In this document: positions 5,388 to 58,807 of the stretch, one piece after another
Layout: the number at the start of each line of letters is the position of its first letter
Numbering within the stretch: position 1 is the stretch's first letter
Assembly (NCBI GenBank): GCA_964373715.1
Contig: CAYJVR010000002.1
Location: 182,937-246,936 of the forward strand
DNA: 64,000 bases
Source: an uncultured Planctomycetia bacterium
Lineage (GTDB): Bacteria; Omnitrophota; Gorgyraeia; 1-14-0-20-64-10
Direction: 5' to 3'
The notes under the pieces: model-generated
The model's input: only the letters and a program-made list of their open reading frames with translations
Database searches by the model: none
Told to the model about the DNA's origin: nothing
Made by a program: the position numbers and the translations under genes

Positions 5388-5391
5388 CGGA

Positions 5392-8761: not shown

Positions 8762-8779
8762 CCGCTCTCCCGCCCTCCT

Positions 8780-13499: not shown

Positions 13500-13579
13500 G
13501 ATAGAGGGAAGCCCGCGTCGGTTTTTTGGAATTTCCGCCCCTGCGGGGTATCTAATAGGGTGAAAGGGGAAAAACGGCG

Positions 13580-19047: not shown

Positions 19048-19148
19048 TTCAGAACGCCACTGGAGTCGTTGGGTTCGGAGCCGTCTAGAAGCGTCTTGAC
19101 GGACTGTTGGCCGAAAGAGTAAACTTTCATCCAGGTAAAGGAGGTTTT

Positions 19149-20924
19149 ATGCCGCCAGTCCGGCATATTGTAAAGCTGACGGGAGAGCGTCTCATCGAAA
19201 AAAAGCTGATTACGTCCGAGCAGCTTGAAAAGGCGCTTCGAAAACAGAAGACCGATTCCCGCCCGCTGGGTGAGATCCTCATCTCCGAGGGGATCCTCAC
19301 GGAAAATCAGTTGATGGAGGTGCTCAGCGAGCAGCTGGGCATCCCGTTCCTCAGCGTTGAGTTCTACGAGGTGGATAAGGAAGCCCTCGCTCTTTTCCCA
19401 AAAGATTTTCTCTGCGAACATCTGGCAATTCCCCTCTTTAAGGTCCACAACACCGTGACGGTGGCGATGGCCGATCCGCTCGATATCCGTACGGTGGATC
19501 GCCTAAGACTTCTTTCAAAATGCGAGATTCAGCCCGTTTTTGCGACCGAAATCGAGATTACAAGAGCGCTCGACCGGTTTTTCGGAGCGGGTGATTCTCT
19601 GGAGAGGGCGATTCAGGAAGCCGAGGCGGGCGTTAAGATGGCGTTGGGGGCGGGGCCCGCCGTTTCACCGGTAAAACCCGCGTGGGCTGGGGAAAAATCC
19701 CCTTCCGCGGAACAGGTCGAGGGGCTGGCCGCCGCCGCGGAGAAGGCGCCGATCGTCAGGCTGGTCGAGACTATCCTCCGGCAGGCGGTCGAAAGCCGGG
19801 CCAGCGATATCCACATCGAGCCGGATGAAGAGGCCTGCCGGGTGCGCTACCGGGTGGACGGCATCCTTTACGATGTTTCTCCGCCGCCGAAGCAACTGGA
19901 ACCTGCGATTATTTCAAGGCTAAAGATCATGGCTTCGCTCGATATTGCTGAGAGGCGCTTGCCTCAGGATGGCCGGATGCAGGTGAGGTTCGGCGATAGG
20001 GAGGTGGATTTCCGCATCTCCACTTTTCCGACGATCTACGGGGAGAATGTGGCAATCCGCGTGCTGGATAAAAGAGCGATTCTGCTGTCTCTGGAAGATC
20101 TTGGTTTTATGCCGGATGCGCTGCACAAATTCAAGAAATTGATCACTCGGCCTAACGGGATACTTTTGGTGACCGGTCCCACCGGCTCGGGCAAGACCAC
20201 CACCCTTTACGCGGCTTTAAGATTGGTTGACGCCGCCCAGCAGAACGTCATCACGCTGGAAGACCCGGTCGAGTACCGGATCCCAAGGGTCCGCCAGTCG
20301 CAGATTGACGTCAAGGCAGGGCTTACGTTCGCTTCGGGGCTGCGGTCCATCGTTCGCCAGGATCCCGATATCATCATGATCGGCGAGATCCGGGACAGGG
20401 AAACGGCGGAGATCGCCATCCACGCCGCCCTCACCGGCCATCTGGTTTTTTCCACCCTTCACACGAACGACGCGGCGGGAGCAATCGCGCGTTTGATTGA
20501 TATGGGGGTTGAGCCTTTTCTCGTGGCCTCCTCCCTGATCGGTGTTCTGGCCCAGCGGCTTGTGCGCACCCTTTGCCCGAAATGCAAGAAGCCTGAGAAC
20601 CTTCCGAAAGAGGGGTTGTTTTCTTTAGGCTTGAAAGAGTTGCCCCCCAAGACAGCGGTATTCCGGGCGGAAGGATGCGATGAGTGCAAGAAATCCGGCT
20701 ACAGAGGAAGAACCGGCATCTATGAATTGCTCGAGATGTCCGAACCGCTGAGGAACCTTACCGTTGCCAAAGCCTCTTCGGGCGACCTTCAGGCGCAGGC
20801 GGTCAAAGAGGGGATGGTGATCCTGCGGCAGGCGGGAGTGGCGAAGGTGATGGAGGGGATCACCACTATCGGTGAGATCCTGCGCAGCACCGACATCCAG
20901 CGGCCGTTGGACAACCAAAGCTGA
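19149..20924 (+). CDS. pilB: Type IV pilus assembly ATPase PilB (GspE family)
   Basis: AAGGAGG RBS, then the ATG at 19149. GspE N-terminal domains are present. Walker A is GPTGSGKTTTLYAAL. The zinc tetracysteine is CPKCKK...EGCDECKKSGYRGRTGIYELL. Confidence 0.85.
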   Translation: MPPVRHIVKLTGERLIEKKLITSEQLEKALRKQKTDSRPLGEILISEGILTENQLMEVLSEQLGIPFLSVEFYEVDKEALALFPKDFLCEHLAIPLFKVHNTVTVAMADPLDIRTVDRLRLLSKCEIQPVFATEIEITRALDRFFGAGDSLERAIQEAEAGVKMALGAGPAVSPVKPAWAGEKSPSAEQVEGLAAAAEKAPIVRLVETILRQAVESRASDIHIEPDEEACRVRYRVDGILYDVSPPPKQLEPAIISRLKIMASLDIAERRLPQDGRMQVRFGDREVDFRISTFPTIYGENVAIRVLDKRAILLSLEDLGFMPDALHKFKKLITRPNGILLVTGPTGSGKTTTLYAALRLVDAAQQNVITLEDPVEYRIPRVRQSQIDVKAGLTFASGLRSIVRQDPDIIMIGEIRDRETAEIAIHAALTGHLVFSTLHTNDAAGAIARLIDMGVEPFLVASSLIGVLAQRLVRTLCPKCKKPENLPKEGLFSLGLKELPPKTAVFRAEGCDECKKSGYRGRTGIYELLEMSEPLRNLTVAKASSGDLQAQAVKEGMVILRQAGVAKVMEGITTIGEILRSTDIQRPLDNQS

Positions 20925-34780: not shown

Positions 34781-34856
34781 TGGTGGAGCTGAGGGGGATC
34801 GAACCCCTGGCCTCCTGCATGCCATGCAGGCGCTCTCCCAGCTGAGCTACAGCCCC
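34781..34856 (-). tRNA. tRNA-Ala (anticodon GGC) with encoded CCA
   Basis: The minus strand reads GGGGCTGTAGCTCAGCTGGGAGAGCGCCTGCATGGCATGCAGGAGGCCAGGGGTTCGATCCCCCTCAGCTCCACCA. The Ala identity pair G3:U70 is present. Anticodon loop ATGGCAT. T-loop TTCGATC. Confidence 0.85.
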
Positions 34857-34919: not shown

Positions 34920-37451
34920 ATGCCTATTCCGACGATGAGTTACTCCTTTAACGAGTGTGAACCCAAATGGCAGCGCCGCTGGAAGGAGGCGGGGTCTTTT
35001 AAGGCCGTCCCTCATTCCACCCCTCTCCCTGGGGGAGAGGGAAAGGGTGAGGGGAAAAAGTATTACCTGCTTGAAATGTTCCCATACCCCTCCGGCCGGA
35101 TCCACATGGGGCACGTGCGCAACTACACGATCGGAGATATCCTCGCCCGCTACCGGCTCGCGCAGGGGTTCAGGGTGCTCCACCCGATGGGGTTTGACGC
35201 GTTTGGTCAGCCGGCCGAGAATGCCGCGATCAAAAGAGGGGTGGACCCCGTCGCTTGGACACTCGACTGCATCGGGCAGATGCAGGCCGGGTTAAAGCGG
35301 CTTGGTTTTTCTTACGACTGGGACCGGGAGGTGTCCACCTGCAGCGCCGACTATTACCGCTGGAACCAGTGGATTTTCCTGAAAATGTTTGAAAAGGGGC
35401 TGGCCTACCGGGCGGGCGCGCCAGTCAACTGGTGTCCCAGCTGTCAGACGACGCTGGCGAATGAGGAGGTCGTGCAGGAGGGGTGCTGGCGCTGCGGCAC
35501 CGCCGTCGAGAAGAAGGAGCTGGAGCAGTGGTACCTGAAGATCACCGCCTACGCGCCGGAGCTGCTCGATGACCTCTCGAAATTGATCCACTGGCCTGAC
35601 CGGGTTCTCACGATGCAGAGAAACTGGATCGGCAGGAGCGAGGGGACGCAGATCCGTTTCATGCTCCAGGACAGCGCCAAGACATTCGACGTCTTCACTA
35701 CGAGGCCTGACACGATCTTCGGCGCGACCTACGTGGTGCTGGCCCCCGAACATCCGCTGGTTTCGGAGCTGATCCAGGGGAAGCCTCAGGAAAAACAGGT
35801 TCGCGTGTTTATCGGAAAGGTTTCCCGCCAGTCGAAGCAGGACCGGGTCGCCGAAGGGGTCAAAAAAGAGGGGATATTCACCGGGGCTTTCGCGGTCAAC
35901 CCGGTGAACGGGGAGTCGGTCCCGGTTTGGGTGGCCGATTACGTCCTGTTCGAATACGGCACCGGCGCGGTGATGGCGGTGCCGACGCACGACCAGAGGG
36001 ATTTTCTCTTTGCGCGGGAGCATAATCTGCCGATGCGCGTCGTGATTTCCCCTCCCGATGGGAAAACGGACCCGGACGGCTGGAAAGAGGCTTATGAGGG
36101 GGAAGGCAAACAGGTCAACTCCGGCCAGTTTGACGGGATGCCCAATGCCGAAGGGAAGAAAAAGATTGCGCTCTGGATGGAGGAAAAGGGGTGGGCGAAA
36201 AGGACCGTCCAATGGCGGCTCCGGGATTGGTTGATTTCCAGGCAGCGCTACTGGGGCACGCCGATCCCGGTGATTTACTGCGGTGCGTGCGGCGTTGTTC
36301 CGGTGCTGGAGGATCAACTGCCGGTCATTCTTCCGGAGAAGATCGAGATCACTGGCACCGGCGGGTCACCGCTGGCCAAGGTGAAGGAATTCGTCGAGAC
36401 CGCCTGCCCGAAATGCCGGAAACCGGCGAGGCGGGAGACCGACACGATGGCGACCTTCATCGACTCCTCCTGGTATTTCCTCCGGTTCTGCTCGCCCGGC
36501 GAGCAAAAACTGCCGTTTGACTCCGCCGCGGCGGATTTCTGGATGCCGGTGGATCAGTACATCGGCGGCATTGAGCACGCGATCCTCCATCTGCTCTACT
36601 CCCGGTTTTTCACCAAATTCCTCCGGGACCTCGGGCTCTTAAAACTGGAGGAGCCGTTCTCCCGTTTGCTGACGCAGGGGATGGTGCTGAAGGACGGCGA
36701 AGTGATGTCAAAATCCAAGGGAAACGTGGTGGACCCCGATGGTGTGATCGCCAAATACGGGGCCGACGCATTAAGAGTATTCATCCTGTTCGCCGCCCCT
36801 CCCGAAGACCAGCTGGAATGGAACGACAGCGCGATCGAAGGGATCTGGCGGTTTTTGAACAGGGTATGGGATCTTGCGGAGCGGTTTAGCGTTCAAAGTT
36901 TAAAGTTCAAAGAAGAAGAGAGTGAATCAAAAGATTCGGGTCCTGAACATGAAACGTTAAACCTTAAACTTGAAACTGAACTTAAGCGGAAAGTCCACGC
37001 CGCGATCAAACGGGTGACCGAGGATATCGAATTGTTCAAGTTCAACACGGCGATCAGCGGCTTGATGGAACTGAGGAACGGGATGGAAAAGGGATTGAGC
37101 GGCTGTTCGCCAGCGGCTGCCCGGGAGGCGGTCGAAGCGCTCATCCGGCTGCTCAATCCGTTCGCTCCGCACATGACTGAAGAGCTTTGGGAGATGCTCG
37201 GCCACAAAGAGATGCTGGCCGCCGGCCCCTGGCCTGCTTATGATGCCGGCCTGTTGACCGAGAGCGAAGTGACAATCGTCGTGCAGGTCAACGGCAAGGT
37301 CCGTTCCCGCATCACCGTGCCTGTAAACATGGAAAAAGAGCAGCTCAAGAGCCTTATTTTAGCCGATCCTGCGCTTAAAAAGTGGATTGACGGCAATACC
37401 GCAAAAGAGTGGGTGATTGTCCCCAACCGGGTCGTCAACATCGTTGTTTAA
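34920..37451 (+). CDS. leuS: Leucyl-tRNA synthetase
   Basis: [55 protein letters not shown] (HIGH region). The KMSKS motif is VMSKSKGN. The match runs the full length of 843 aa. Confidence 0.9.
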
Positions 37452-37542: not shown

Positions 37543-40500
37543 ATGTTAAAGAAGAAAGCCTCGAGCAGAGCTATTTTTTTTGCCCGCTTATTGAGCTCTT
37601 TTTTGATCGTGGAGCTGGCGGTAGGGGGAACCCCTGCCCATGCTCTGCGTCCGATCAACGCTCCTGAATCGGGCACTGCCTTAGATCTTCAGGGAGCTCT
37701 CCGTACAGGCCTCCCGGATCTCTCTCCTTTGAACGCCGGCCTCGAAGAGGTCCCTCCCGGTTGGTATTCTCAAGCTGTTTTCTACAGCATGGAGATGGAC
37801 CGGTTTGTTGATGGGTTGACGCCGGATGCTCTCACCCGGGATGAGATGGAGGTGGTCAGGGGTTTCCTCGAGAACCGGGAGACTGCTCTGCTGGAGGGGG
37901 TCAGCCAGATCATGAGCGACAAGAACTCGGCGATCCACTTTGTCCCGGAAATGACCGAGTCGGAGATTCTCCGGGAGTACCAGAACGACCCGGACCGCCG
38001 CCAGCAGACGCCGTACTACTGGGGTACGGCGCGTGTTCCGTTCGTTGACCTGAAAAAGATGGTCGGAACCTTCAACCTGCCGAAGGATTTCCCAGACCAG
38101 TTCAAGGACCTCGTGTATAGGGCGCTCCGCCGCCGTCATCCTCTGGGAAAGTCGCCTCTCTACGGCGGAGTTCGCGGAGGGGCTCTCGGCGCCCGCATCG
38201 TGATGATGCACCAGGCCCCTGACCAGTTTGCGCTCAGCGTGCGGGAGGCGATTGACGAGGCCCGGGACCGGATCAAAGAGCTTTATCCGGAGGTTTTTGT
38301 GGGAAACATGAGTGTCCAAGGCCAGGCCGAAGTGCCGCGTTCGCAACTGTTCGACCAGATCATCGCCAAGCTCCGCTTTTACTCTTCCCATGTGTCAATC
38401 ACTCTGCCTGACCCTCCGGAATCCCCATCGATCAGCCTCGCATTCGACGGGATGATGCGTGTGCCGCTCAAAGATGTTCCGCGGACGCTTGAACGGGGTG
38501 AGGTTGAGGCGATTGACGAGGGCAGGAAGCCCCCTTATCTGAATCCAGACCAGCTTGCCCTCCTCGCTGAGGACCCCGCCACAGCGGCCGAATTAGTCCA
38601 ACAGTATCTCGACTGGGACCGGTACTTCAGCGAGCGCCGCGGCAAGTACTCGACCGCCGCTCGGTACTGGCTCCGGCAGGTGGCGCTGCTCCGGGCCAGG
38701 GGCGAGGAGAACGACCGGGCCCGCGCCATAGCGAGTTTCTTCATCGAGAGACTGATGTCCGACCGGTGGGCCAGTTTGAACGCGCGGCTTCCACTGTCAG
38801 AGGTGATCTACTTCCCGGATATTGATCCGGAGTTGACCCAGGCTATCCGCCAGGTGATGCCGCCCGAGATGCTCCCGGCCCCGGAGCACCCGGAACGGAT
38901 CCTGGTCATTGACGACGCGTTCATCAGCGTATTGATCGAGGGGTTCCGCAGCATGATAAAGAAGAGTCCGACCCGGTCGCAGCAGCAGATGCAGTCCATG
39001 CGGATGCTCGGCCGGATTTTCAAGATCATGCTCGAAGGGTACAGGGGGACCGTCCCCTTGGCGAACTACCACACCGCGCGCAATCCGCGGCTCCGCCACG
39101 CGATCGACCGGGTGTACAACCTGGACCGGCCGGAGGGGACCTCCTCGAAGCGGATGATGGACGCCTGGGAACATCTGGACCAGCGCCGGCTGCTGCTGGA
39201 CCGGGCCGTCCGTGAGAAGAGCGATCAGGTCCAACCGCTCCGGGACCAGATGCAGGTTGCGCTTGATCAGTTCAAGGAGGAGTACCGGCGTTACCGGCTC
39301 GACGCCTACGAAGCGATGATGCTCGCGCCCCGGGATCCCCGCGTGGAGGAGGTTGTGAAGCTGTACTGGGTTGACCAGTACGCCGAAGCCGACCGGTCGG
39401 GACATATCGCCTCCCTCCGGGGACATCTCACCGGCGAGAGGGACCGTCTGATCGCCCGCCGGGACCAGATTGTTGCAGGCACTCCCGCAACGGTCGAGCT
39501 CGATTCCGCTATCGGCCGCTTGAACCGGCTCATCGGGCTCTTGAATCCCGGCGCGTTTATCGTCAAGCGCCCGGAAGGGGACGAGATCGCGCCCGTGATG
39601 CGGCACTCGAACGGTCTGTTCGTGATGGGGTTAACCGAGCGGAACAAGGGATGGTCGCACGACCAGACTTATCCGCCCGGCCCGACCGACGAGATCTATT
39701 CGGCGATTACGCTAAGGTCTCTTGACGACGCGGTGAAAAAATATTCCGAATCGGGCGGCGACACCCGCCGGGCAATGGTCGGCGCGCTGGCGAACACGAA
39801 CGCGGTTATCCTGCAGGTGGAGCCGCGCGACTTCCCGACTTACGAGAAACATCTGGAAAACGGACTGGTTGTCCGTATGGAGTCGTACGCCCCCCCCGGG
39901 TTGCCCGCCCCGACCAGCTTGCGCAGCCCCCGCAGCCGGAACTGGTACCGCTGGCTGGCAGACCGGGACGCCAAGGGCAGCCCATGGCAGGAGGACCCGG
40001 CCCGGACCGGCCCCGCCGAGAGGCACCCCGACCTCCGGCGTTTCCGGGACAAGTTGTCGGTTGCCGCGATCTACAACGAGGTTTTGCTGTCGCCCGATCT
40101 TTTGCCGGAGATGTTCGCCCAGCTTGAGTTGGCGACCGACATCCAGAAGAAACGGCCTGACCTGGTGTCCCGGGTCGTAGAGATCCATGAGATTGTCAAG
40201 GAGCCCGAGAGCGTGTGGGATCTCCCGCCCGACGCGTTGGCCGGACTCGAAGAACTTGAGGCCGGTTTTCAGAGGATGGAGACGGCCGGCGACGTGTCCG
40301 GGCTGGAAGAGACGCCCCTTCAACAGAAGATTTTTCTCAGGCTGCGCACTCAGAGCCGGAGGATTTCCGAGCGCCTTCAAGGCCACCCTTTTCCTATAAA
40401 AATTCTGTTGGGCCCCGGTCAGATGCCGGTTTACCGGGCGGAGAATGACGGTCTGCCTATGAACCGGATGACATTGTGGCTGTTCAGCCGCGGCGTCGAG

Positions 40501-43500
40501 AACCTGATCCTGCGCGAGGCGGGCCCGGAGTTTCAGCAGGAATTTTCCGATGCGGTGCGGGAGTTCGGCGCCAACCAGCCTTTTACGATGTACGACGGTC
40601 AGACGGTCCTGACGATGGCCAGCACCGATGAGGTCAGGCAGTTGGTTGAGGGAGACGCGCGGCTTAACCCTCAGCAAAGAGCGAGAGTCATTTTACTCAA
40701 AGAGTTTATCGACCGCAGCCGGGGGTTGAACCCGGACGCCGTTGTTGAAGCCGCCGTTAACTTTCTGTTTGATGATAATTACCGAAACCTGTTGGAGAAC
40801 GTCAATCACGTCCGGACCAACCCGGGCAAGAATCCCCGGTTGGCCGGCGGCAAACCGCCGGTCCGGTCGGCCGGCGAGATTGATTCGCAGAGAGGGGTCG
40901 AGATCTGGCTGGTCAAAGAGGGCAACGATACGATGGTTGCCCAGGTCTCCGTTTTCTTGAAGGACGGCACTCGCTCCTTGTTTGTGGTCAACGTTGCAAA
41001 GGATTTAACCGACGCGGGAAGAATCTTGACGGAAGTTGTTCAGGTGCTCGACGCGAACTACGAGCGGCATCCGGGCTACAGCATGGAGACCTTCCAGTTC
41101 GGCGAAGGGACGGCTTTCGTGGGAACCAGAGAACAGAAGATCCCGCTTTTCACCGGAGAATGGCTTGAGGGATACGAAGAGTCCCATCTGTTTGCGGTCC
41201 CCGAAGATTCCGGCCAGCCGGCCCGCTTCCATGTCTGGTGGGGCCAGAACTCCCGTTTGAGCGAGCCTCTTTCAGAGACCGAATCGGACAGCGTTTGGTC
41301 GGCGTTGATAGAAGCCCAAACCGTTCTCTCCTGGATCGAAGGTCGCGGCAAAAATAGGAGGGCCATATTGAGCCAGCCCAACGTGAATGCCGGGGATATG
41401 CCGGTGATCAAGCCGGGAAACGGCTGGAAGGGGGTCCTCATCTGGGACCGCCGGATGGTACCGCCCGAGAAATTCGACCTTGGCCAGATGGTTTTGGAAG
41501 GGCTTCTTAAACAGGTCGTCGATTCGCGCGGCGGCCAGATTCGCAGGATTTGGTGGGGAAAGCCGGAGAAGGCAGTGGAGGCGATCCGCCGCGGTTTCGT
41601 GGAAGCGGCCCGCTACCAGGCGGAGAAAGCGGGGAAGGACCAAAGACGGGCCATGCGGCAGGCTCAGGCGAGCTTGAACCGGATTTTCGAGAGGGTTTAT
41701 GAGGGGACCTTACAGGCATGGGCCAACGATCCCAGCCTCTATCCTGGGTGGAGCGATTTCACGGCTTCGGAAAAACAGCGTTTTTCGGAAATCGTTGCGC
41801 AGGCGCGCCATGTGGTCGGCGTTGTTATCGGAGAAGAGGAGCCTCAATCGCTGGAAGAATCGGGTCTTGAGGAAGGGTACGCAGCGAAGTCGGACCGGCT
41901 GGAGCGGTTGATTCCTGAGGTTGAACAGCTCATGGCGGCCGAAACCAAAAGCGGCCTCCTTCGCAGGACCATCGGGGAGATCCGGAGCGATTCGTATTTT
42001 GTCGAGGGGCAGATCGCTTACATTCCCGTGCGCCAGGGAGCGCTCTACGTGATCGGCGATAACCACGGCGATTACAAGAGCCTGCGCAAGGCGATCCAGC
42101 GGAGTGGCTATGATCCGGAGGATCCGGACCGGCCCCATCTTGTTTTTGTCGGCGATTACGGGGATGTCGGGAAGAAAAGCTTGGATGTGGTTCTTCAGGT
42201 GTTGGAAATGAAGCTGGCCGATCCGGAGCGGATCACCCTGCTGGCGGGCAATCACGACCGGGACCGGCCCACCCGCGGGTCGGAAGACGTCCAAAAGTGG
42301 ATCGCCGCCGGCAACGAACCGTCCCGCTGGTTTTTCTGGGAGTTGGAGGAGAAGATTGGCCCTCAGCGGGGTTCCGCCCTGTTTGACCGGCTTACCCGGT
42401 TGGCCAGAAGTTTGCCGATGCTGGTTGTGACGGCCAACGGGATCGCCGTAACGCACGCAAGTCCCCCCTCCGCGCTTGATCCTTTGTACAAGCCGGAAGA
42501 GGGGCTCCTGGGGATCGCGGGCAATCAGAAACTGCTGGACCGGTTTGCCTTCAACCTGATCCGATATCCGGATGCTGAAGCGGATGAGCAGAACACCACC
42601 TTTCACCGGATGCATCCCCGTTTGGAGATGGGACATTGGATCGGCCGGCAGGGGATCGACACTTTCCTGAACAGCATCGGGGCGACGGTCTTGGTTCGGG
42701 GGCACAACCGGACCGGGCCCGTTCTGCCGACCCACCAGGGGAAGGTGCTGACCGTCATCACCACCGACTGGCGTTCCAACGACGGCGGCTATCCGAAGCA
42801 GGACAGAGGGGTTGCCCGGATCGCCAAGTTTGACTTGGCCGCCTCCTATGCTCAGATACCGTCCGAAGTCATCCTCTCCGTTTGGGACGCCGCAGGCCGG
42901 CTGCCGCGGCAGTCGCCGTCGGGTCTCGAGGAGGTGTCGGAGCGGGTACCGTTTGAGTTAGGACAGCTTGCCGAACGGAGCCGGTCGGATCTTCCGTTGA
43001 TTGTTGATCTGCAGACCCTTCCGCCGGGACTCCTGCGCGATTTCATCGAATGGCTTAACCAGATCGAGGCGGATGATGTGGTGGTGATCGGCGGGATGCT
43101 GCGCGATACGCTTCTCGGATATGAGCCGGGCGACGTTGATTTTGCCGTCAAGGTAGAGTTGCCCGCTGACCTACAGCAGTCTTGGCAGGAGGATGTGCGG
43201 CGGCTGACGCCGATTGCTTTGAATGAGAAGTACAAGCTCCAATATCGAGCCGACAAGGTGCTTTACCAAGTCGCAAAGAAAATGCAGATCTCTCCTAGCC
43301 GGCTACTCCGGCTGAGAGAACGGTTTCAGGAGCAGGGTTTGGAGTTCAGCTTCAGCGCGGTGGTTGCGGGAAATTTCTTGATTGATTTCGGACGGCAGGC
43401 AACCTTTACAGTTAATCAGATTGCGATGGACCGGAAGGGCCGTGTTTATCTGCCTGAATCGCGGAGAGGGTTCGAGGATCTTTTCAACCGGTTGATCGTT

Positions 43501-45306
43501 GTGCCGCGCAGTTCCGGCAGCGGGCCAATTGCGGGAATCGGATTAAAAACCGCTCTCCAAGGGGTTCGGTACCATCATCAATATGGAATGACAATCGATC
43601 CGGCCACTTATCAGCTTTTCCGACGGGTTGCGGAGCGAGGACAGTCTGAGCCACCGTCCCGTATCCGGAGGATTTGGTGGACGGTCAAGGGAACGATCCG
43701 CGAACTCGGCAGGGCTGTCGCTCATCCGTCTCTTGCGGGGGCCCATCTGCGTTCCGCTCGCCGGTTGGCCGCTCGTATGCTTTGGGATTCTTGGATGCAC
43801 GATGCCCCCGGCCGATGGTTGGAAAAAGTGCTCGAATCGGTTCCCGATCCGGTACCGGTGTTGCGGGAATTGGCCGAGCTGGGTTTGCTGGACGTATTGC
43901 GGATTTCCGGTGCGGATGTGGACGGGATCATTGACCGTCGAATGGGCGGTCCGCCGGCCTCAGCCGGGTTGGAGGAGTTGACCGTGGAAAAGGTGGATCA
44001 GTGGATTCATCTCCTCGAACAGGGGTGGCCGGATCAGCGATGGATCACTTTAGGGAATGCCGGGTGGGCTCTCTTCCTGCGTTCCGCCCCGCCGGAGGCG
44101 ATGGTCCTGCGGGCCGACCGGTTGGTTTCTGCGGTCGTCTCCAATCTGGCCCCGCCCAAGCAATCCTGGGGGTCTTTTCTCTTCGCAGAACAGAGGGATG
44201 TCCGGGAGGACGCGCAGAAGTTGGTGAATACCTTTCTGCGAGTTCCCCGGTTTCGCAAGGCGCTTGCTGCCGACCCGGATCGGGTGGTTTCCCATACGCT
44301 CCGTAATTTTGTTTTACGCAAAGGTTTTCTGGGATTCAACGCCGCGGGGTCGATTCGTCTCATGGTTGGTTTGGAGCCTTTTCAGGAATCGTTGGCCGGC
44401 CGGATCCCCTCCTTGGTTGACCTTCTAGAGGGGGCCGATCCGGTCATCGCTTTAAGGGCCCGTGAGATCCTGATCGATTTTTTGGAACAACCCGGTTTCC
44501 GCCCGTTTCTGGCGGATGAGGTCTCGACGCTGGTGTGGTTCCTCCGGAAAGGGAATCTCTCGGCCGGCGTTCATTCGGGAGAAATCCTGAAGGCCATGGC
44601 TTCCATCGAGACTTTCCGCCCGGCGCTGGCTCGCGAGGCCCCTTCGCTCAGGGAGCTGACGGAAAGCGAAGGCGAGTACCTTTCGCCACGCGCTTACGCG
44701 AGGGATATCCTGGAACTGCTGGGCCCGACGGGGATCTGGTTTGGGAACGGCATCCAGGTGCTCGATCGACGGCCGGTTTTGCCGAGCGGCAGCATCCGTT
44801 TTGGATTCTCCGCCGGTTTGGAAGAGTTGGGGTCCCTCCGCCAGCGGATGCCGGAGTGGCTGCGGGGGATTATCTCCCCGGACCGTCTGCCGGACCTGGT
44901 CCGCGGGGTGCATGAGATCTCCAATGCCTCTGACAAGGTGGCCGTGCTGATCCATCCGGGGCTCTTTCCGGCCGATGCCGACCCGTTTGATCTCGAGGTG
45001 AACCTGGTCGGGCTTTCGGGCAATGTGCGGGCTTCTTTGGGCCTGCGTGAAGGGACTGACCTGAGAATTGGTCTTTTGACCGAAGAGAACTTGAAAACCT
45101 ACAACGGGTACCGGATCGTCCAGGTGTTGAGGGATCCGGCCGCCGCGCACCGGGAAGCGCTGCCTCTGGAGGCGGTCCCTCTCGTGGTGGCCGAGGCTCT
45201 CTCTGTGCGGGGAAACACCTTCTGGGTGGATGTGACCCCCTATCTCGCGGTGAGTGAGTTGACGATGCCGGAGGTTCTCTCCACGCTCACCGATCTCTTC
45301 GCGTGA
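37543..45306 (+). CDS. Giant (2587 aa) multi-domain protein: N-terminal hydrophobic leader, about 1450 aa of unassigned sequence, a calcineurin-like (PPP-family) metallophosphoesterase domain, a poly(A)-polymerase/CCA-type nucleotidyltransferase head domain, and about 600 aa of unassigned C-terminus
   Basis: Uninterrupted 7.76-kb ORF with an AT-rich promoter region upstream and a terminator hairpin downstream. PPP motifs at about 42040..42260: VIGDNHGD (GDxHG), VFVGDYGDVG (GDxxDRG-like) and LLAGNHD (GNHE-like). NTase head at about 43084..43150: VVIGGMLRDTLLGYEPGDVDFAV, which matches the GGxxRDxxLGxxxxDxD pattern of PcnB and CCA-adding enzymes. Six [S/A]GLEE motifs lie at predicted domain boundaries. 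Confidence 0.7.
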   Translation: MLKKKASSRAIFFARLLSSFLIVELAVGGTPAHALRPINAPESGTALDLQGALRTGLPDLSPLNAGLEEVPPGWYSQAVFYSMEMDRFVDGLTPDALTRDEMEVVRGFLENRETALLEGVSQIMSDKNSAIHFVPEMTESEILREYQNDPDRRQQTPYYWGTARVPFVDLKKMVGTFNLPKDFPDQFKDLVYRALRRRHPLGKSPLYGGVRGGALGARIVMMHQAPDQFALSVREAIDEARDRIKELYPEVFVGNMSVQGQAEVPRSQLFDQIIAKLRFYSSHVSITLPDPPESPSISLAFDGMMRVPLKDVPRTLERGEVEAIDEGRKPPYLNPDQLALLAEDPATAAELVQQYLDWDRYFSERRGKYSTAARYWLRQVALLRARGEENDRARAIASFFIERLMSDRWASLNARLPLSEVIYFPDIDPELTQAIRQVMPPEMLPAPEHPERILVIDDAFISVLIEGFRSMIKKSPTRSQQQMQSMRMLGRIFKIMLEGYRGTVPLANYHTARNPRLRHAIDRVYNLDRPEGTSSKRMMDAWEHLDQRRLLLDRAVREKSDQVQPLRDQMQVALDQFKEEYRRYRLDAYEAMMLAPRDPRVEEVVKLYWVDQYAEADRSGHIASLRGHLTGERDRLIARRDQIVAGTPATVELDSAIGRLNRLIGLLNPGAFIVKRPEGDEIAPVMRHSNGLFVMGLTERNKGWSHDQTYPPGPTDEIYSAITLRSLDDAVKKYSESGGDTRRAMVGALANTNAVILQVEPRDFPTYEKHLENGLVVRMESYAPPGLPAPTSLRSPRSRNWYRWLADRDAKGSPWQEDPARTGPAERHPDLRRFRDKLSVAAIYNEVLLSPDLLPEMFAQLELATDIQKKRPDLVSRVVEIHEIVKEPESVWDLPPDALAGLEELEAGFQRMETAGDVSGLEETPLQQKIFLRLRTQSRRISERLQGHPFPIKILLGPGQMPVYRAENDGLPMNRMTLWLFSRGVENLILREAGPEFQQEFSDAVREFGANQPFTMYDGQTVLTMASTDEVRQLVEGDARLNPQQRARVILLKEFIDRSRGLNPDAVVEAAVNFLFDDNYRNLLENVNHVRTNPGKNPRLAGGKPPVRSAGEIDSQRGVEIWLVKEGNDTMVAQVSVFLKDGTRSLFVVNVAKDLTDAGRILTEVVQVLDANYERHPGYSMETFQFGEGTAFVGTREQKIPLFTGEWLEGYEESHLFAVPEDSGQPARFHVWWGQNSRLSEPLSETESDSVWSALIEAQTVLSWIEGRGKNRRAILSQPNVNAGDMPVIKPGNGWKGVLIWDRRMVPPEKFDLGQMVLEGLLKQVVDSRGGQIRRIWWGKPEKAVEAIRRGFVEAARYQAEKAGKDQRRAMRQAQASLNRIFERVYEGTLQAWANDPSLYPGWSDFTASEKQRFSEIVAQARHVVGVVIGEEEPQSLEESGLEEGYAAKSDRLERLIPEVEQLMAAETKSGLLRRTIGEIRSDSYFVEGQIAYIPVRQGALYVIGDNHGDYKSLRKAIQRSGYDPEDPDRPHLVFVGDYGDVGKKSLDVVLQVLEMKLADPERITLLAGNHDRDRPTRGSEDVQKWIAAGNEPSRWFFWELEEKIGPQRGSALFDRLTRLARSLPMLVVTANGIAVTHASPPSALDPLYKPEEGLLGIAGNQKLLDRFAFNLIRYPDAEADEQNTTFHRMHPRLEMGHWIGRQGIDTFLNSIGATVLVRGHNRTGPVLPTHQGKVLTVITTDWRSNDGGYPKQDRGVARIAKFDLAASYAQIPSEVILSVWDAAGRLPRQSPSGLEEVSERVPFELGQLAERSRSDLPLIVDLQTLPPGLLRDFIEWLNQIEADDVVVIGGMLRDTLLGYEPGDVDFAVKVELPADLQQSWQEDVRRLTPIALNEKYKLQYRADKVLYQVAKKMQISPSRLLRLRERFQEQGLEFSFSAVVAGNFLIDFGRQATFTVNQIAMDRKGRVYLPESRRGFEDLFNRLIVVPRSSGSGPIAGIGLKTALQGVRYHHQYGMTIDPATYQLFRRVAERGQSEPPSRIRRIWWTVKGTIRELGRAVAHPSLAGAHLRSARRLAARMLWDSWMHDAPGRWLEKVLESVPDPVPVLRELAELGLLDVLRISGADVDGIIDRRMGGPPASAGLEELTVEKVDQWIHLLEQGWPDQRWITLGNAGWALFLRSAPPEAMVLRADRLVSAVVSNLAPPKQSWGSFLFAEQRDVREDAQKLVNTFLRVPRFRKALAADPDRVVSHTLRNFVLRKGFLGFNAAGSIRLMVGLEPFQESLAGRIPSLVDLLEGADPVIALRAREILIDFLEQPGFRPFLADEVSTLVWFLRKGNLSAGVHSGEILKAMASIETFRPALAREAPSLRELTESEGEYLSPRAYARDILELLGPTGIWFGNGIQVLDRRPVLPSGSIRFGFSAGLEELGSLRQRMPEWLRGIISPDRLPDLVRGVHEISNASDKVAVLIHPGLFPADADPFDLEVNLVGLSGNVRASLGLREGTDLRIGLLTEENLKTYNGYRIVQVLRDPAAAHREALPLEAVPLVVAEALSVRGNTFWVDVTPYLAVSELTMPEVLSTLTDLFA

Positions 45307-45314
45307 CCGTCAAT

Positions 45315-45337
45315 CGGCCAGACCGGCCGCTTTTTTT
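45315..45337 (+). terminator. Rho-independent terminator after the giant ORF
   Basis: cggcc-agacc-ggccg is a hairpin with a 5-bp GC stem. It is followed by cttttttt, 9 nt after the stop codon. Confidence 0.5.
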
Positions 45338-45374
45338 ATGCCTTTATATTTGTAGATTATGATAATTTAATGCT

Positions 45375-54106: not shown

Positions 54107-57100
54107 ATGAAACCTACAAAAACAGCTCTCCAAACTGCTCTCGGGCTCTTTCTCTGCCTCGCTCTTGCTCTGCCTGGTTCCTCCTACGCTTTGCGAATCG
54201 AACAGGTCGGAGATAGCTCTTTTGCGCTCAACGGATTGGAGCAGAGACTGAAGCAAGATGCCTTACTGCCCGCCTCCGGGCTAGAAGAGAAATGGAGCTC
54301 TTTCCCCTGGAGGTCACTCGAGGGGAAAACGCTCCGCCAAAAACTTCTTCGGCTGAGACGATTCGCGGATCTTACACAGCGCCGTTTTGCCGAAGAGGCG
54401 GGCATCAGTGTGCATTATTACTTTGCTCTCGAGAAAGGGACGAAGATTCCGTCCCTGCGTATGCGCCGGAGAATAGCCGATTTCTATGTGGAGCGGCAGG
54501 GCGCTCCCCGTTGGGCAATCTATGAACTATTTGAGATCCGGGACCCGGAAGAGATCCTGAAGGGGTTGAAAGGGAAACCGGTTCATGAAGTTGTTCGAGG
54601 GCTGCGTGAATCGGTGGGGGTTTTTAAAGAAGGGGACACGGGTATTGCAAAGATAGTGGGAATGGACAGGCTTGAATACAGGCTTCTCGAGCGGGGTCAA
54701 GTCGCCCCGACAACAAGGCTGCTCCGCAAGCTGATCACCTACTATTCGGAAGAGCACGATTTTCCACCCGATGCTCTCGCAAGGGTTCTTGGGATCAAGT
54801 CCGCGGAGGAAATGCTCGATGGGATAGAAGGGGAAGAGCTTCCCAAGATGATCCGTACACTGCGGGATTTTGCAGGGCTGACTCAAAAAGAGCTGGCAGA
54901 GGCCATCAATGTTTCGGAAGCCACTTATCGGGTCTGGGAGTGGGATGGGGCAGGGCCCCCCTCCTTGGCGAATCGCCGGGCGCTTGCCGGTTACTACGAA
55001 ACCGCGCACGGTTTTCCTCCGGTCCGCATAAGAAGGATTTTTAGAGTGGAGATTCCTGCGGCGGAGGTGATGACGCGGCTGGCCGAGGTTTCGAGCTTTT
55101 CCGACGCGCTGCGGCTTCTTCGGACCTCGCAAGGTTTTCTGCCGGCCCGATTGGCTGAAATCCTCGGGGTTTCAAGGAATACCTACTACAGTTGGGAAGA
55201 GAATAGAGTTATTCCCGGACCTGGCGATCAGGAGAAGATCGCCGCTTATTTCAGCGAAAAATGGGGGTTCCCTTACCGTCATCTCTTGAGTCATTTGACA
55301 GGATTGGCGCATGCCCAGCAACCGATACCGCCAGGAGCCCGCGATGTTCCGATGCTGAACATCACAGTGAACGATCAGCGCTTTCGTGTTCCCGCCGCCG
55401 GTCTCATCGGTTCCCAACCGCTTAATTTCAGGCAACTCTTCAACTTGCTGGTGCGGGAAGATCTGCTCGATTACGAAGATTCTCAAGAGGTCGAGAGCAG
55501 GCGTGTGATTATTGAGCGAGAAATGGAGACCGACGAAGGGACCCAGCCCGTCGTCAAGCTGCTTGGATCGCCGGTGACCACGGATGAGTTGAACCGGTTA
55601 CACGTATTTTCAAAGGTCGAGGATAACGATCAGATTGTTATTTCACCCATCGTGATCAGGAGGGGATGGAAACCGCGACAAACCGAGAATGTCGGGAGCC
55701 TCTTAAACCCAACGCGGGTTGTCCGGCACCCGGATGAGGTGGATATTTGGCTTCTATCAGCGGAGGAAAACGAGGATCCGGTACCGGATGATACCGAAGA
55801 GACAGGTACCCAGCCGCCGTCCGACGCTGGGTTGGAGGAGGAAAAGCAGGAGGCGAGCTGGGCACTTCCGGTGCGTCAGGTTTGGGTTCCACAGTTGAAT
55901 CGACATCTCTACGCGACGGATGAGATTGTCGATGCAGATAACCGCGGGGCTTCCCTTTTTCTAGACTTGATCGCGTCTAATCCCGGAGTGTTTCGAGAAA
56001 AAAGAGTCTTGGAAATCGGGACTGGATCGGGCGTTATCGCGATCGCTTTAGCGCGGGCCGGTGCAATCGTGGTTTCGATCGACATCTTGCCCGAAGCATT
56101 GGAATTAGCGCAGGCCAATCTCGTCGGAGAAACCTCAGAGGTTCAAGGGCGGATAACGCTTAGCCAAAGCAACGTCTATGCCCAGATACGGAAGATTACC
56201 GACAAGCTAGACTTTGATATGGTGGTAACCAACAATCCAATTCAAAATAAAGAGCCCTTGCAAGAGCAGAAAATCACTTATGCCCGCTGGGCGGGGAAAG
56301 GTTTCCAATTTGTTCGAGATGTAGTTGAAGGTTTGCCGGCCGTCTTAAAACCACTAGGGCAAAATCGCGAGCTTTACATTTTAACCTTTGAGGAGTCGGC
56401 GCGCGATGATGCCGGTGATTATCTGGTTCCGTCCCGCCTTCAAGACCTCCTGCTTCCCCATTGGACGCTACAACATACGGGATTGGTCTCAGCCCCGGAG
56501 GGGAGACCGCCAATATCCATTCAGCATGTCTTTGATACAAGAACCCAGGTGGCCACTCTTGAAGTAGGCGGATCGTATCTTCGGGGCGGGGTTTTCGGCC
56601 TTTCCGGAAACCTCATCTATCCAATGCAAACCATCTTTTTGCCCAACGTTCTCCCATACCGCCCCGTATCGAATCGTGAGAATCAAGAACCTCTCCTCCA
56701 ACTGATGGTGAATTCGCTTCAGCAGCTCATGCGACAAGCAGGTGGTGTGGGCGGCATTTCGTTGAGTATGGCGACTGACGTTGATCCATCAGGACGCTTG
56801 ATTCCCAGCGGGGCGGAAAACGTTCCGTTCCCAGAATCCTTCGAGCTTGCCGATCTCCTTGAAAAACGGCTTGGCCCGGATGTCCGCGTTTTGCTTTCCA
56901 ATGACATCGTTTCAGCCGCAACCGCCGAAGGGCTGTCAGGTGCTGGGAAAGGGCTTGATTTTTTTCTTTTCGCCACGGTATCCACGGGACATACCACCGC
57001 TGCAAAGTTTCCGGATGGAAAAATTTCGGATCTGGGAACCTGGAACTATAAAGTGGATCTTAACGACAATGTTCGCGGCGTCAACGCAGCTGGCGTACCG

Positions 57101-58807
57101 GTTACCCTGCTGGCCGCCGGCAATGGGATTGCAGATCTGGCTCGTCAAAACACAGGGCGGCCTGGCTATCCGGAGATTTTGGAAATGGCGGGTGGAGATC
57201 CAAACGCTATTACTGGAAAAACAGTCGGGGAAGCTTTTCTGAAGGGAAATCCTCTCGCAGCAGAGCTTGTTCACCGTTCAACTGCCTTGATTGGGAAGAC
57301 GTTGATGCTGGCTTTACAAAACCTTCGGCAAGAGGGTCGCTTGCAGTCGATCGACCAGTGGAATCAACCTGCAATTCCTATTATTCTCAGTGGTGGCTTT
57401 GCCGCCGGAATAGGCCCTCGTTATGCAGCGGAGGTACAACGGACTATCGATGATCTGGGAGGTCAGACACTCTACGCAAAACCGATCCGAGTCATCCCTC
57501 CTGAATTGGACGCCGATTTGCGCGGACCTGCCGGAGCAGCCATCCATTTTGCTCAACAAAATCTCGCTGGATTGAGAGAAGAAGCTCTCGCTCAAGCAAT
57601 GTCAGAGGAAACGGTACCGGAGAAGCCGGTACGGGGTACCGAAGAGACAGGTACCCAGCCGCTGCCCGACGCAGGGTTGGAGGAGTTCCAGAAGCGGTTG
57701 GTTTTAAGAGAGGAAATAAGGGGGGCCTTTTCTAAGGCGGATGCCTACCACGACGTGTGGAAGCCTTTCGAACAAAAAATCTGGGAACCGTTTAGAAAAA
57801 AGCAGTTCATTACAAACACCTACTATTTCTTTGCGGATGATAAGTTGGGCCTCCCGAAATATCAAGTGCCTTTCAAGGAAGCCTTCTTAAACCTGGCCCT
57901 CCACGGCAATGGAGGATGGGTAGAAATCTACCGGCTTCATCGGGAAGGTCAGGATTCCGACGGGATCGAGTTTGTGCTGAAGGATCACGGCCCGGGCATA
58001 GAAAATCCAAACGTGGTTTTAGAAGCGAGTATTCAAGCGCAAAATGACAAAGCTCAGAAGGGATTGGGTTTTGCGCTTATCTCGATGTTTCCCGATCGAA
58101 TAATCTTTCATTCGAAAGGTGTGCAGTGGGAAAAACGAGAGTTTCCAGATCGGAGATTCCGGCCTGCCGGGCCTTCGGACGTCGCGCAGGGAGACGGAAG
58201 CCGCTGGCATCTGATTTACGAGAAGCTGCCGTATGCGATGAGCCCGCAACAGGCTCCTTGGGGCGCCTGGAAAGCGCCGTTTTCCGGGGAGAGCCCTACC
58301 GGCCAAGAGGGGGATAAGACCGCCGGCATGGAGGAGATACCGTTGGAGAAAGCGATCGATCTCCTCGAGGAGGCGATGCCACAAGGGCCGGGGATTTTGG
58401 TGATTGAGGCCGGGGTGGTCAGCCGGCGGATGGGGCTGGCGGAGTTTGTCGCGCGCGTTCCACGGAGTCTGGGAGACCGGATCGTTCTCTTCGGGCCGGA
58501 GAGCGCGGAGGCCAGGGAGATCGCCGTCCGCAACGGCATCGCCGTGGTGGACAGCGACAAACTGAGCGATCTGATTCTTCAGCTTATGGTTCTTGGAGAT
58601 GAAGCCGACCGGGTTGGCTATCTCGGAGATCCGGAAACCGCCGCGGTGCTTTCCGCCAGGCTGCCCTCTTCCATGGAGGTGACGCCGCTTGATCCTGAGA
58701 CGGCGCTTGACCGGCTCCTGCTTTATCTCGGATTCCCCCAAGGGGTGCTGGAGACGATCGACGCGATGGGGATGGAAGAGCTGTTCGCCCAGGCCCGGGC
58801 GGCGTAA
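54107..58807 (+). CDS. Giant (1566 aa) mosaic protein: signal peptide, four tandem Xre-type HTH modules, a class I SAM methyltransferase, a ROK/BadF-like sugar-kinase fold, an anti-sigma-type GHKL (HATPase_c) kinase domain, and a C-terminal domain
   Basis: Signal peptide MKPTKTALQTALGLFLCLALALPGSSYA|LR. The four HTH repeats are LRRFADLTQRRFAEEAGISVHYYFALEKG, ...DRLEYRLLERGQ, LRDFAGLTQKELAEAINVSEATYRVWEWDG and GFLPARLAEILGVSRNTYYSWEENR, each ending in an aromatic-GFPP/HDFPP motif. The MTase motifs are VLEIGTGSGVIAIALA and VVTNNPI. ROK-like: VRVLLSNDIVSAATAEGLSGAGKGLDFFLFATVSTG. GHKL: NLALHGNGG, LKDHGPGI and KGLGFALIS. There are two copies of a 45-bp linker repeat. Confidence 0.7.
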   Translation: MKPTKTALQTALGLFLCLALALPGSSYALRIEQVGDSSFALNGLEQRLKQDALLPASGLEEKWSSFPWRSLEGKTLRQKLLRLRRFADLTQRRFAEEAGISVHYYFALEKGTKIPSLRMRRRIADFYVERQGAPRWAIYELFEIRDPEEILKGLKGKPVHEVVRGLRESVGVFKEGDTGIAKIVGMDRLEYRLLERGQVAPTTRLLRKLITYYSEEHDFPPDALARVLGIKSAEEMLDGIEGEELPKMIRTLRDFAGLTQKELAEAINVSEATYRVWEWDGAGPPSLANRRALAGYYETAHGFPPVRIRRIFRVEIPAAEVMTRLAEVSSFSDALRLLRTSQGFLPARLAEILGVSRNTYYSWEENRVIPGPGDQEKIAAYFSEKWGFPYRHLLSHLTGLAHAQQPIPPGARDVPMLNITVNDQRFRVPAAGLIGSQPLNFRQLFNLLVREDLLDYEDSQEVESRRVIIEREMETDEGTQPVVKLLGSPVTTDELNRLHVFSKVEDNDQIVISPIVIRRGWKPRQTENVGSLLNPTRVVRHPDEVDIWLLSAEENEDPVPDDTEETGTQPPSDAGLEEEKQEASWALPVRQVWVPQLNRHLYATDEIVDADNRGASLFLDLIASNPGVFREKRVLEIGTGSGVIAIALARAGAIVVSIDILPEALELAQANLVGETSEVQGRITLSQSNVYAQIRKITDKLDFDMVVTNNPIQNKEPLQEQKITYARWAGKGFQFVRDVVEGLPAVLKPLGQNRELYILTFEESARDDAGDYLVPSRLQDLLLPHWTLQHTGLVSAPEGRPPISIQHVFDTRTQVATLEVGGSYLRGGVFGLSGNLIYPMQTIFLPNVLPYRPVSNRENQEPLLQLMVNSLQQLMRQAGGVGGISLSMATDVDPSGRLIPSGAENVPFPESFELADLLEKRLGPDVRVLLSNDIVSAATAEGLSGAGKGLDFFLFATVSTGHTTAAKFPDGKISDLGTWNYKVDLNDNVRGVNAAGVPVTLLAAGNGIADLARQNTGRPGYPEILEMAGGDPNAITGKTVGEAFLKGNPLAAELVHRSTALIGKTLMLALQNLRQEGRLQSIDQWNQPAIPIILSGGFAAGIGPRYAAEVQRTIDDLGGQTLYAKPIRVIPPELDADLRGPAGAAIHFAQQNLAGLREEALAQAMSEETVPEKPVRGTEETGTQPLPDAGLEEFQKRLVLREEIRGAFSKADAYHDVWKPFEQKIWEPFRKKQFITNTYYFFADDKLGLPKYQVPFKEAFLNLALHGNGGWVEIYRLHREGQDSDGIEFVLKDHGPGIENPNVVLEASIQAQNDKAQKGLGFALISMFPDRIIFHSKGVQWEKREFPDRRFRPAGPSDVAQGDGSRWHLIYEKLPYAMSPQQAPWGAWKAPFSGESPTGQEGDKTAGMEEIPLEKAIDLLEEAMPQGPGILVIEAGVVSRRMGLAEFVARVPRSLGDRIVLFGPESAEAREIAVRNGIAVVDSDKLSDLILQLMVLGDEADRVGYLGDPETAAVLSARLPSSMEVTPLDPETALDRLLLYLGFPQGVLETIDAMGMEELFAQARAA
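55796..55840 (+). repeat. 45-bp intragenic linker repeat, copy 1 (encodes EETGTQPPSDAGLEE)
   Basis: gaagagacaggtacccagccgccgtccgacgctgggttggaggag. It is 42/45 identical to the copy at 57641..57685. Both are preceded by a KpnI site (ggtacc). Confidence 0.8.
57641..57685 (+). repeat. 45-bp intragenic linker repeat, copy 2 (encodes EETGTQPLPDAGLEE)
   Basis: gaagagacaggtacccagccgctgcccgacgcagggttggaggag. Confidence 0.8.

Follow-up and report, generated by a model that had tools for sequence, protein, structure and literature searches.

The 64,000-nucleotide stretch analyzed here (the window; contig CAYJVR010000002.1 of assembly GCA_964373715.1, from an uncultured bacterium that GTDB places in Omnitrophota) carries a giant gene of 2587 codons at positions 37543..45306 of the forward strand. 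An earlier note, made from the sequence without database searches, had read this gene as the fusion of a calcineurin-like phosphoesterase with a nucleotidyltransferase (NTase) of the CCA/poly(A) polymerase type, and had proposed either an RNA 3'-end healing or tailing machine or an RNA-targeting effector. Both enzyme domains are present, and they sit in an array of parts: a predicted Sec signal peptide, a short leader, autonomous cassettes that each open with [A/S/T]-G-L-E-E (here called GLEE), and a C-terminal domain of about 160 amino acids (aa). The parts of the giant gene are as follows, with an arrow marking the predicted cleavage site and the basis of each assignment in parentheses.

37543..45306, + strand: giant open reading frame (ORF), 2587 aa plus stop codon (ORF call; identical DNA in two assemblies)
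37543..37644, + strand: predicted Sec signal peptide, aa 1-34, with n-region KKK..R, hydrophobic core and A-H-A↓L-R site (hydropathy, relatives)
37738..37749, + strand: GLEE junction 1, aa 66-69, 31 aa past the predicted signal peptide cleavage site (motif)
37738..40242, + strand: cassette 1, aa 66-900 (835 aa) (no relatives detected)
40243..40311, + strand: GLEE junctions 2 and 3, aa 901-904 and 920-923, with a 15-aa spacer (motif)
40300..41862, + strand: cassette 2, aa 920-1440 (521 aa) (shared over its full length with P0004 at 42% identity, and partly with P0023)
41863..42921, + strand: metallophosphoesterase (Metallophos) cassette, aa 1441-1793, from GLEE junction 4 (Pfam, motif conservation, homology blocks starting at cassette residue 1)
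42922..43965, + strand: NTase cassette, aa 1794-2141, from GLEE junction 5, with class-II head and helical neck/body (Pfam, AlphaFold2 [AF2], Foldseek)
43966..44814, + strand: cassette 5, aa 2142-2424 (283 aa), from GLEE junction 6 (no relatives, Pfam or PDB match)
44815..45303, + strand: C-terminal domain, aa 2425-2587, from GLEE junction 7, ending in ...LTDLFA (shared with otherwise unrelated family proteins)

The ORF list and translation give a single ATG-start ORF without an internal stop, as the earlier note had it, and the other reading frames across its 7.8 kb contain only short ORFs. The DNA of the ORF is identical in an NCBI metagenome-assembled genome (MAG) contig (GCA_947085675.1, 315 kb) and in the Logan assembly of run ERR4904392, two assemblies possibly built from the same reads. 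An ORF this long, mostly unannotatable and almost without full-length relatives, could be an artefact, either an assembly chimera or several genes joined by sequencing errors, and the third-position GC content (GC3) of the NTase cassette is lower than that of the other cassettes of the ORF (0.62 versus 0.70-0.80). We consider an artefact exceedingly improbable. Besides the agreement of the two assemblies and the long open frame, two other genomes carry a gene of similar size in the same genomic slot, one of 2754 aa and the other, truncated where its contig ends, of at least 2554 aa. The leader and the C-terminal domain both match relatives, which places the two ends of the ORF in a single architecture. 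The NTase cassette also stays inside the GC3 range of other window genes; its lower value would fit a cassette acquired more recently or from a foreign source.

The GLEE motif, preceded by A or S, occurs seven times in the giant protein (aa 66, 901, 920, 1441, 1794, 2142, and 2425), against 0.12 copies expected from composition (Poisson P=7e-11), and none of 20000 shuffles of the protein held more than three copies. A six-frame scan of the 64-kb window located the motif only in the giant ORF and, three times, in the ORF at 54107..58807. Codons differ among the seven copies, indicating that the constraint acts on the protein. We rejected the possibility of a DNA repeat or an internal Shine-Dalgarno/re-initiation signal on the grounds of these differing codons, the lack of a consistent following start codon, and the non-purine-rich motifs found elsewhere. 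Copies 4 and 5 enclose the phosphoesterase, copies 5 and 6 the NTase.

Homology begins and ends where the motif does. When GLEE-delimited segments of different proteins were compared by blastp, alignments started at residue 1 and ended no more than about 17 residues from the segment ends. The Metallophos cassette (aa 1441-1793) aligns with aa 1661-2008 of its relative P0004 over residues 1-351 and 1-347, respectively, and cassette 2 (aa 920-1440) aligns with aa 1140-1660 of the same protein over residues 1-514 and 1-519. The motif therefore marks true cassette boundaries. Almost every family member has a first GLEE inside its N-terminal ~40-72 aa, and in single-cargo relatives such as P0013, the cargo is flanked by the motif at both ends. 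Across 69 sites, the sequence logo has a Pro-rich stretch at positions -5 to -3 and a small residue at -1, followed by G-[L/M]-E-E, and AF2 models place GLEE at the start of folded modules.

Two other short motifs recur in giant proteins among the relatives, at 5 to 17 copies per protein in chains of 3.9-7.8 kaa, and are almost mutually exclusive with GLEE. P0007, P0010, P0042, P0077, and P0105 carry RSE[MVLAI]R (RSExR; up to 17 copies), while P0019, P0023, and P0054 carry [GA]AR[LM][AS] (GARLA/AARMA; up to 16 copies). These motifs, too, lie at cassette boundaries in the part examined, the surroundings of the NTase cassette: within proteins of 3912-7840 aa, this cassette is flanked on both sides by RSE[MVLAI]R in P0010, is followed by RSEMR in P0007, and is bounded by [GA]AR[LM][AS] in P0023 and P0054.

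The N terminus of the giant protein reads MLKKKASSRAIFFARLLSSFLIVELAVGGTPAHA↓LR and has Sec-type features by sequence. This region is the only Kyte-Doolittle window above 1.5, with no further transmembrane (TM) helices, and the A↓LR cleavage site is conserved in relatives (HALR, FALR, YALR, IALR). The NCBI annotation of the gene (P0001, 2567 aa) begins 20 codons later, at 37603 instead of 37543, which removes the basic n-region of the signal peptide; the longer start is backed by the homologues P0004 and P0015. A Tat signal was ruled out, as no consistent twin-arginine motif appears across homologues. The giant protein is also devoid of cysteine (0 in 2587 aa, versus a mean of 0.76% in the other window genes; P=3e-9). 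Its relatives are similarly depleted (P0054, 0/5514; P0105, 1/6112; P0004, 1/2554), and the stand-alone NTase P0031 is not (1.2%). The signal peptide and the absence of cysteine together point to export and argue against a cytoplasmic role in tRNA repair, and we infer that the giant protein is exported through Sec.

The three PPP-family motifs that had been reported at about 42040..42260 are present in the Metallophos cassette: GDNHG at 42055-42069, GDYGDVG at 42151-42171, and GNHD at 42247-42258. Pfam Metallophos (PF00149) matches significantly over aa 1502-1721 (nt 42046-42705; E=9.6e-11, 42.9 bits versus a cutoff of 21.5), and a conserved helical extension of ~55 aa precedes the PPP-type binuclear metallophosphoesterase core. 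All metal ligands are intact: an alignment of about 20 cassette homologues keeps GDNHG, GDYGDVG, GNHD, the His of VTHASPP, and RGH, which read family-wide as GDxHG, GDYxDxG, GNH[DE], His in H[AS]xxP, and RGH. The cassette thus shares with lambda phosphatase, PrpA/B, PrpE, ApaH, and PP1/PP2A the motifs GDxHG, GDxxDxG, and GNH[DE], the PPP spacing, and two downstream His ligands. It differs from these PPP enzymes in its N-terminal extension, in a distinct C-terminal half, and in the phosphate-binding Arg of the canonical GDxxDRG, which is Val here (GDYGDVG) and varies across the cassette family. The best matches in a PDB sequence search were PP1/PP2A, over motifs I-III. The cassette reaches no NCBIfam equivalog: similarity to PrpE, PrpA/B, ApaH, and, lower down, Pnkp is weak and far under the cutoffs. 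The phosphatase domain of bacterial Pnkp has the same fold as PPP-family metallophosphoesterases. The bacterial Pnkp model TIGR04075 scores 16.2 bits against a cutoff of 750 (E=0.0022), over the N-terminal motif region only, and the Pnkp kinase and ligase domains have no Pfam or NCBIfam match in the giant ORF.

The head motif of CCA-adding enzymes and poly(A) polymerases, which the earlier note had placed about 270 aa downstream of the phosphoesterase, is there as well (VVIGGMLRDTLLGYEPGDVDFAV, 43081-43149). The Pfam PolyA_pol head (PF01743) matches marginally over aa 1848-1985 (nt 43084-43497; E=1.1e-4), with 23.0 bits, exactly the cutoff of 23.0, and the predicted fold confirms this borderline assignment. 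An AF2 model of aa 1794-2142, built with eight homologues in the alignment, has a pLDDT of 88.5. In the PDB, Foldseek matches it at ranks 1-28 exclusively to class-II enzymes, whether CCA-adding, A-adding, CC-adding, or poly(A) polymerases (probability 1.0, TM-score 0.31-0.41, E as low as 3e-7). Motif A GGxxRD and the catalytic DxD, here DVD, are kept (IGGMLRDTLLGYEPGDVDF, aa 1849-1867), the latter in 6 of 8 homologues of the cassette. The RRD of motif B and the EDxxR of motif D, the amino-acid template for CTP/ATP, are defining motifs of CCA enzymes. RQA-TFTVNQ stands here in place of the canonical RRDFTxN and GLKTALQGVRY in place of EDxLRxLRAxRF, and neither RRD nor EDxxR occurs in any of the eight aligned homologues. 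Since GGxxRD and DxD are kept and RRD and EDxxR are missing, this cassette is probably an active member of the class-II NTase fold, though not a CCA-adding enzyme in the strict sense. What it shares with class-II tRNA NTases and bacterial poly(A) polymerase is the GGxxRD...DxD head motif and the predicted head/neck fold. It departs from them in a helical insertion of ~75 aa after the DxD, in the changes of RRD to RQA and of EDxxR to GLKTA, in its low TM-scores (0.35-0.41 in this comparison), and in being embedded in an apparently exported cassette protein. Unlike the E. coli-type repair protein, which joins NTase and HD domains, the giant ORF has no Pfam match to an HD phosphohydrolase domain, and with 16.3 bits (E=0.0032) it remains far under the cutoff of 451 set for PRK10885, the model for the multifunctional CCA/repair protein. 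The metal-binding and catalytic residues of both enzyme domains are present in the alignments, and both domains were recovered by the profile searches.

To evaluate how often the two modules travel together, an exhaustive HMMER search with aa 1441-2142 as the query was run against 1.84 billion cluster representatives; it returned 1533 matches at E≤0.001, of which the best 150 were listed. The phosphoesterase half (query residues 1-~350) and the NTase half (~356-698) matched different proteins. Per-segment phmmer of these best 150 of 1533 identified no protein with both modules other than the giant protein itself, in agreement with the earlier statement that no protein with this combination was known. 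The NTase cassette stands alone in P0031 and P0036, as the phosphoesterase cassette does in P0006 and P0008. A word-indexed protein search matched the full protein to itself and P0002 only and the C-terminal domain to P0003 only. The relatives carry 2-8 distinct Pfams each, and the giant protein carries two plus a signal peptide. GLEE-type relatives hold PfkB, PrmA-like and other methyltransferases, GATase, GNAT, HEAT, TPR, and Fic cargo, and in one relative of the RSExR type the NTase cassette occurs alongside Maf, an ARMT1-like phosphatase, and inositol monophosphatase (IMPase). In P0014 (3341 aa), one GLEE-delimited cassette is present twice (aa 747-1155 and 2471-2868, 63% identity), indicating cassette-level duplication within one protein.

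The genomic slot tells the same two modules apart. Two tRNA genes on the minus strand, tRNA-Leu(caa) at 34527-34610 and tRNA-Ala(ggc) at 34781-34856, lie upstream of leuS (34920..37451) and are divergent from it. The giant gene was said to sit directly downstream of the tRNAs and leuS; it does follow leuS transcriptionally, and the divergent tRNAs are not upstream of it in that sense. P0004 and P0015, both from genomes named Candidatus Omnitrophota bacterium at NCBI, occupy the same slot, and as far as each locus extends, the order of tRNA-Leu(caa), tRNA-Ala(ggc), leuS, and giant gene is as in the window. A further relative, L007, comes from an Omnitrophota MAG. P0004 has the leader, cassette 2, and the phosphoesterase in common with the giant protein and then continues with Fic, while P0015 has TPR, the phosphoesterase, and Fic immediately next. 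The slot is conserved and the cassettes turn over, with the NTase specific to this genome among the three compared. Because the tRNA/leuS neighborhood is identical in the genomes without the NTase, it reflects backbone synteny and is uninformative about that domain. Cassette shuffling, in which cassettes would be gained, lost, and swapped at GLEE junctions, best accounts for the two domains being found together in this protein alone. At the L009 locus, the order shared with the window runs on past the giant gene through comEA, comEC, PilZ, BamD-like, LptE, and holA.

These comparisons bear directly on the proposal of a cytoplasmic enzyme that heals or tails RNA 3' ends and is functionally linked to the neighboring tRNAs and leuS. 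Under that proposal, the metallophosphoesterase would remove 2',3'-cyclic or 3'-phosphate ends and the adjacent NTase would rebuild or tail them. The HD domain of E. coli-type CCA enzymes and the bacterial Pnkp phosphatase remove such RNA ends, and both enzyme types are found in known RNA-repair systems. The intact catalytic metal ligands of both domains, the weak NCBIfam similarity to Pnkp and to the multifunctional CCA/repair protein, and the tRNA-leuS-giant gene order kept in three genomes would also fit. However, the two NCBIfam scores are about 16 bits against cutoffs of 750 and 451, the phosphoesterase is nearest to PP1/PP2A protein phosphatases and ApaH/PrpE-type enzymes, and the NTase is without RRD and EDxxR. 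The same neighborhood is kept where the giant gene has Fic and no NTase, the two cassettes are never together elsewhere among the matches listed, and the signal peptide and zero cysteines speak against the cytoplasm. We consider this proposal quite unlikely. The idea that a calcineurin-like domain takes the place of the HD domain of a CCA enzyme finds no support in the same evidence: the two domains are separate cassettes with a GLEE junction between them and their own relatives each. Nor is a single RNA 3'-end machine upheld, given Fic in place of the NTase in the same slot, the missing template motifs, and the exported, cysteine-free character of the chain. Of the two alternatives raised in the earlier note, the effector is compatible with our findings, while RNA healing or tailing is not supported, and that interpretation is thus supported in part.

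The roughly 2000 further residues that had been left unassigned remain so. Neither Pfam at E≤10 nor phmmer against the PDB yields a match for cassettes 1, 2, or 5 or for the C-terminal domain. Cassette 1 has no match among the 150 retrieved proteins, Pfam, or PDB sequences, and cassette 2 has none in Pfam or the PDB, a PDB profile search included. The C-terminal ~160 aa are 38-50% identical to the C termini of P0002, P0003, P0005, P0015, L005, L006, and L007; among those whose N terminus is present, P0002, P0015, and L005 have the A↓LR signal peptide site. All four complete relatives with this domain (P0002, P0005, P0015, and L005) have GLEE junctions between different cargo. The model of the domain shows a predicted alpha/beta fold with no PDB analogue. 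The 1566-aa window protein encoded at 54107..58807, P0013, and P0014 have another C-terminal domain after the last junction. A profile comparison of the two aligned GLEE only, so they are not detectably homologous, and at least two unrelated classes of C-terminal domain follow the last GLEE.

Taken together, the coincidence of motif and homology boundaries, the independence of the cassettes, the intact catalytic and metal-binding residues, and the cysteine depletion lead us to read the giant gene as encoding an exported modular multi-enzyme protein of Omnitrophota, in which phosphoesterase and NTase are independent neighboring cargo. We give this reading a probability of roughly 0.6. In such a protein, the phosphoesterase would dephosphorylate a separate substrate, and the NTase, lacking a CCA-specific template, would extend an RNA 3' end or some other acceptor by nucleotides. 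Fic, NTase, kinase, methyltransferase, and helix-turn-helix (HTH) modules need ATP, NTPs, S-adenosylmethionine (SAM), or DNA, which are absent extracytoplasmically, and by this substrate logic the likely site of action of the cargo is the interior of a host or prey cell, this phylum being host-dependent. The Pro-rich, small-residue logo, the GLEE copies on both sides of single cargo, and the existence of three motif types would favor a processing site. That GLEE marks sites of processing, or at least of recognition, between leader, cargo, and C-terminal domain, with polyprotein-like behavior of the chain, seems to us plausible if somewhat short of an even bet. The fuller version is more tentative still: these could be true bacterial polyproteins or multi-cargo secretion substrates, Sec precursors cut or recognized at lineage-specific [AST]GLEE, RSExR, or GARL[AS] sites by a co-evolving protease or secretion machinery, with the enzymes released into host or prey.

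Several points weigh against reading the protein in this way. Both same-slot relatives carry another nucleotide-transferring cassette, Fic, after the phosphoesterase, and a loose functional pairing of phosphoesterase and nucleotidyl transfer could still hold. The co-occurrence negative covers the best 150 of 1533 matches, export is deduced from features of the sequence, and delivery to a host is speculation from substrate logic. No protease turned up in the Pfam and PDB searches, either within the giant protein or beside it. In P0002 and P0005, further GLEE copies lie in loops of the folded C-terminal domain; such positions are awkward for a pure cleavage site and fit a recognition motif better.

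The last two points also favor a different arrangement, in which the chain would be an uncleaved surface or periplasmic scaffold, tethered or displayed via its C-terminal domain, with GLEE as a docking or recognition motif for a chaperone, secretion component, or partner. Cutting within the C-terminal domain would destroy it, and docking would suit the AF2 models, in which folded modules begin at GLEE. Against a scaffold, the nucleotide-dependent cassettes (NTase, Fic, kinases, and methyltransferases) would presumably lack substrates both in the periplasm and beyond the cell. The GLEE-flanked single cargo of P0013 looks like one that is excised from leader and sorting domain, and the use of three mutually exclusive motifs by different giant proteins is reminiscent of protease sites that co-evolve. 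We regard the scaffold as rather doubtful.

An exported modular multi-enzyme protein would have company in Omnitrophota. One preprint describes long multi-enzyme proteins with a signal peptide or TM helices as a class in this phylum, with ROK kinases, methyltransferases, and HEAT/TPR as recurrent content (bioRxiv 10.64898/2026.06.07.730766). Another raises possible post-translational cleavage of the products of giant Omnitrophota genes, calls the cleavage points unknown and an obstacle to structure-by-parts analysis, and reports type II secretion system (T2SS)/pilus genes near such giant genes (bioRxiv 10.1101/2023.11.21.568195). The giant protein shares with these proteins the phylum (through the same-slot P0004 and P0015), a signal peptide, unrelated enzyme Pfams tiling one chain, ROK, methyltransferases, and HEAT/TPR in the cargo of its family, and T2SS/pilus genes nearby. 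It differs in size, at 2.6 kaa versus the sets of at least 10 kaa in the 2026 preprint, and has no TM helix beyond the signal peptide. The two preprints do not mention a combined Metallophos and class-II NTase content. Junction motifs are described neither there, where GLEE, linker, and cleavage were the terms searched for, nor in full-text literature searches for the motif strings. We met no description of cysteine depletion in the two preprints, in which no search was aimed at cysteine content.

Two better-known formats offer partial parallels. MARTX toxins are single chains of swappable effector modules that vary by strain and are released in the target cell at short processing sites. The giant protein is likewise an array of swappable modules split by short motifs, with cleavage here only a candidate; it differs in its Sec signal peptide and its conserved C-terminal domain, and RTX repeats, a cysteine protease domain, and a type I C-terminal signal have no Pfam or NCBIfam match at E≤1 in it. 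Sorting architectures such as type IX secretion (T9SS) combine a Sec signal, variable cargo, and a removable C-terminal domain (CTD), which in T9SS is a beta-sandwich. A Sec signal, variable cargo, a shared C-terminal domain, and a short motif at the cargo/CTD boundary recur here, whereas the C-terminal domain of the giant protein is alpha/beta without a PDB analogue, and its family has at least two unrelated classes.

Two further features of the window are as follows.

45315..45339, + strand: terminator-like GC hairpin with T-run, 9 nt past the stop codon (consensus match only)
54107..58807, + strand: second protein of the same kind, 1566 aa, SYA↓LR, 3 GLEE + 1 GMEE (motif and Pfam scan)

The cassettes of the second protein comprise three HTH_3, a methyltransferase, ROK, and HATPase_c_2, and its sole cysteine lies in the signal peptide; DNA-binding HTH modules are odd in an apparently exported protein. 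A type IV pilus/type II secretion-like gene set occupies 3215..10006 (ParA-like ATPase, PilM, PilN, secretin, and GspF-like by Pfam), and a 605-aa ORF at 19107..20924 resembles a GspE/PilB-type ATPase by eye. This pilus/T2SS-like set could be an export route for the cassette proteins. An apparent operon at 12897..19047 encodes an ECF sigma factor, an anti-sigma factor (zf-HC2/FecR), and a 1513-aa signal peptide protein with Laminin_G_3, which carries no GLEE. Many of the large proteins recovered end in a small apolar dipeptide: ...FA in the giant protein, P0002, P0005, P0015, and P0016, and ...AA or ...SA in P0007, P0010, P0019, P0021, P0054, P0042, and the 1566-aa window protein. Such a terminal dipeptide could serve as a C-terminal recognition signal. 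P0003 (L004 1..1078) is a 172-aa remnant of the C-terminal domain that begins shortly ahead of its GLEE. It lies immediately 3' of an ORF resembling a DDE transposase by eye and may be a family member truncated by the insertion of an insertion sequence (IS).

The pairing of phosphatase and NTase is thus probably not a new RNA-repair machine, and that claim is to be downgraded. In its place stands a simple, checkable rule, that a short group-specific motif delimits the cassettes of exported, nearly cysteine-free multi-enzyme proteins of Omnitrophota. The junction motifs are candidate cut points that make the question of cleavage directly testable, and with them any such protein can be divided cassette by cassette for biochemical work and structure prediction. 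If the polyprotein reading is true, the motifs would supply the cleavage map that earlier work on giant genes called missing. If the cassettes do reach other cells, they would represent a new format of effector delivery in a host-dependent phylum.

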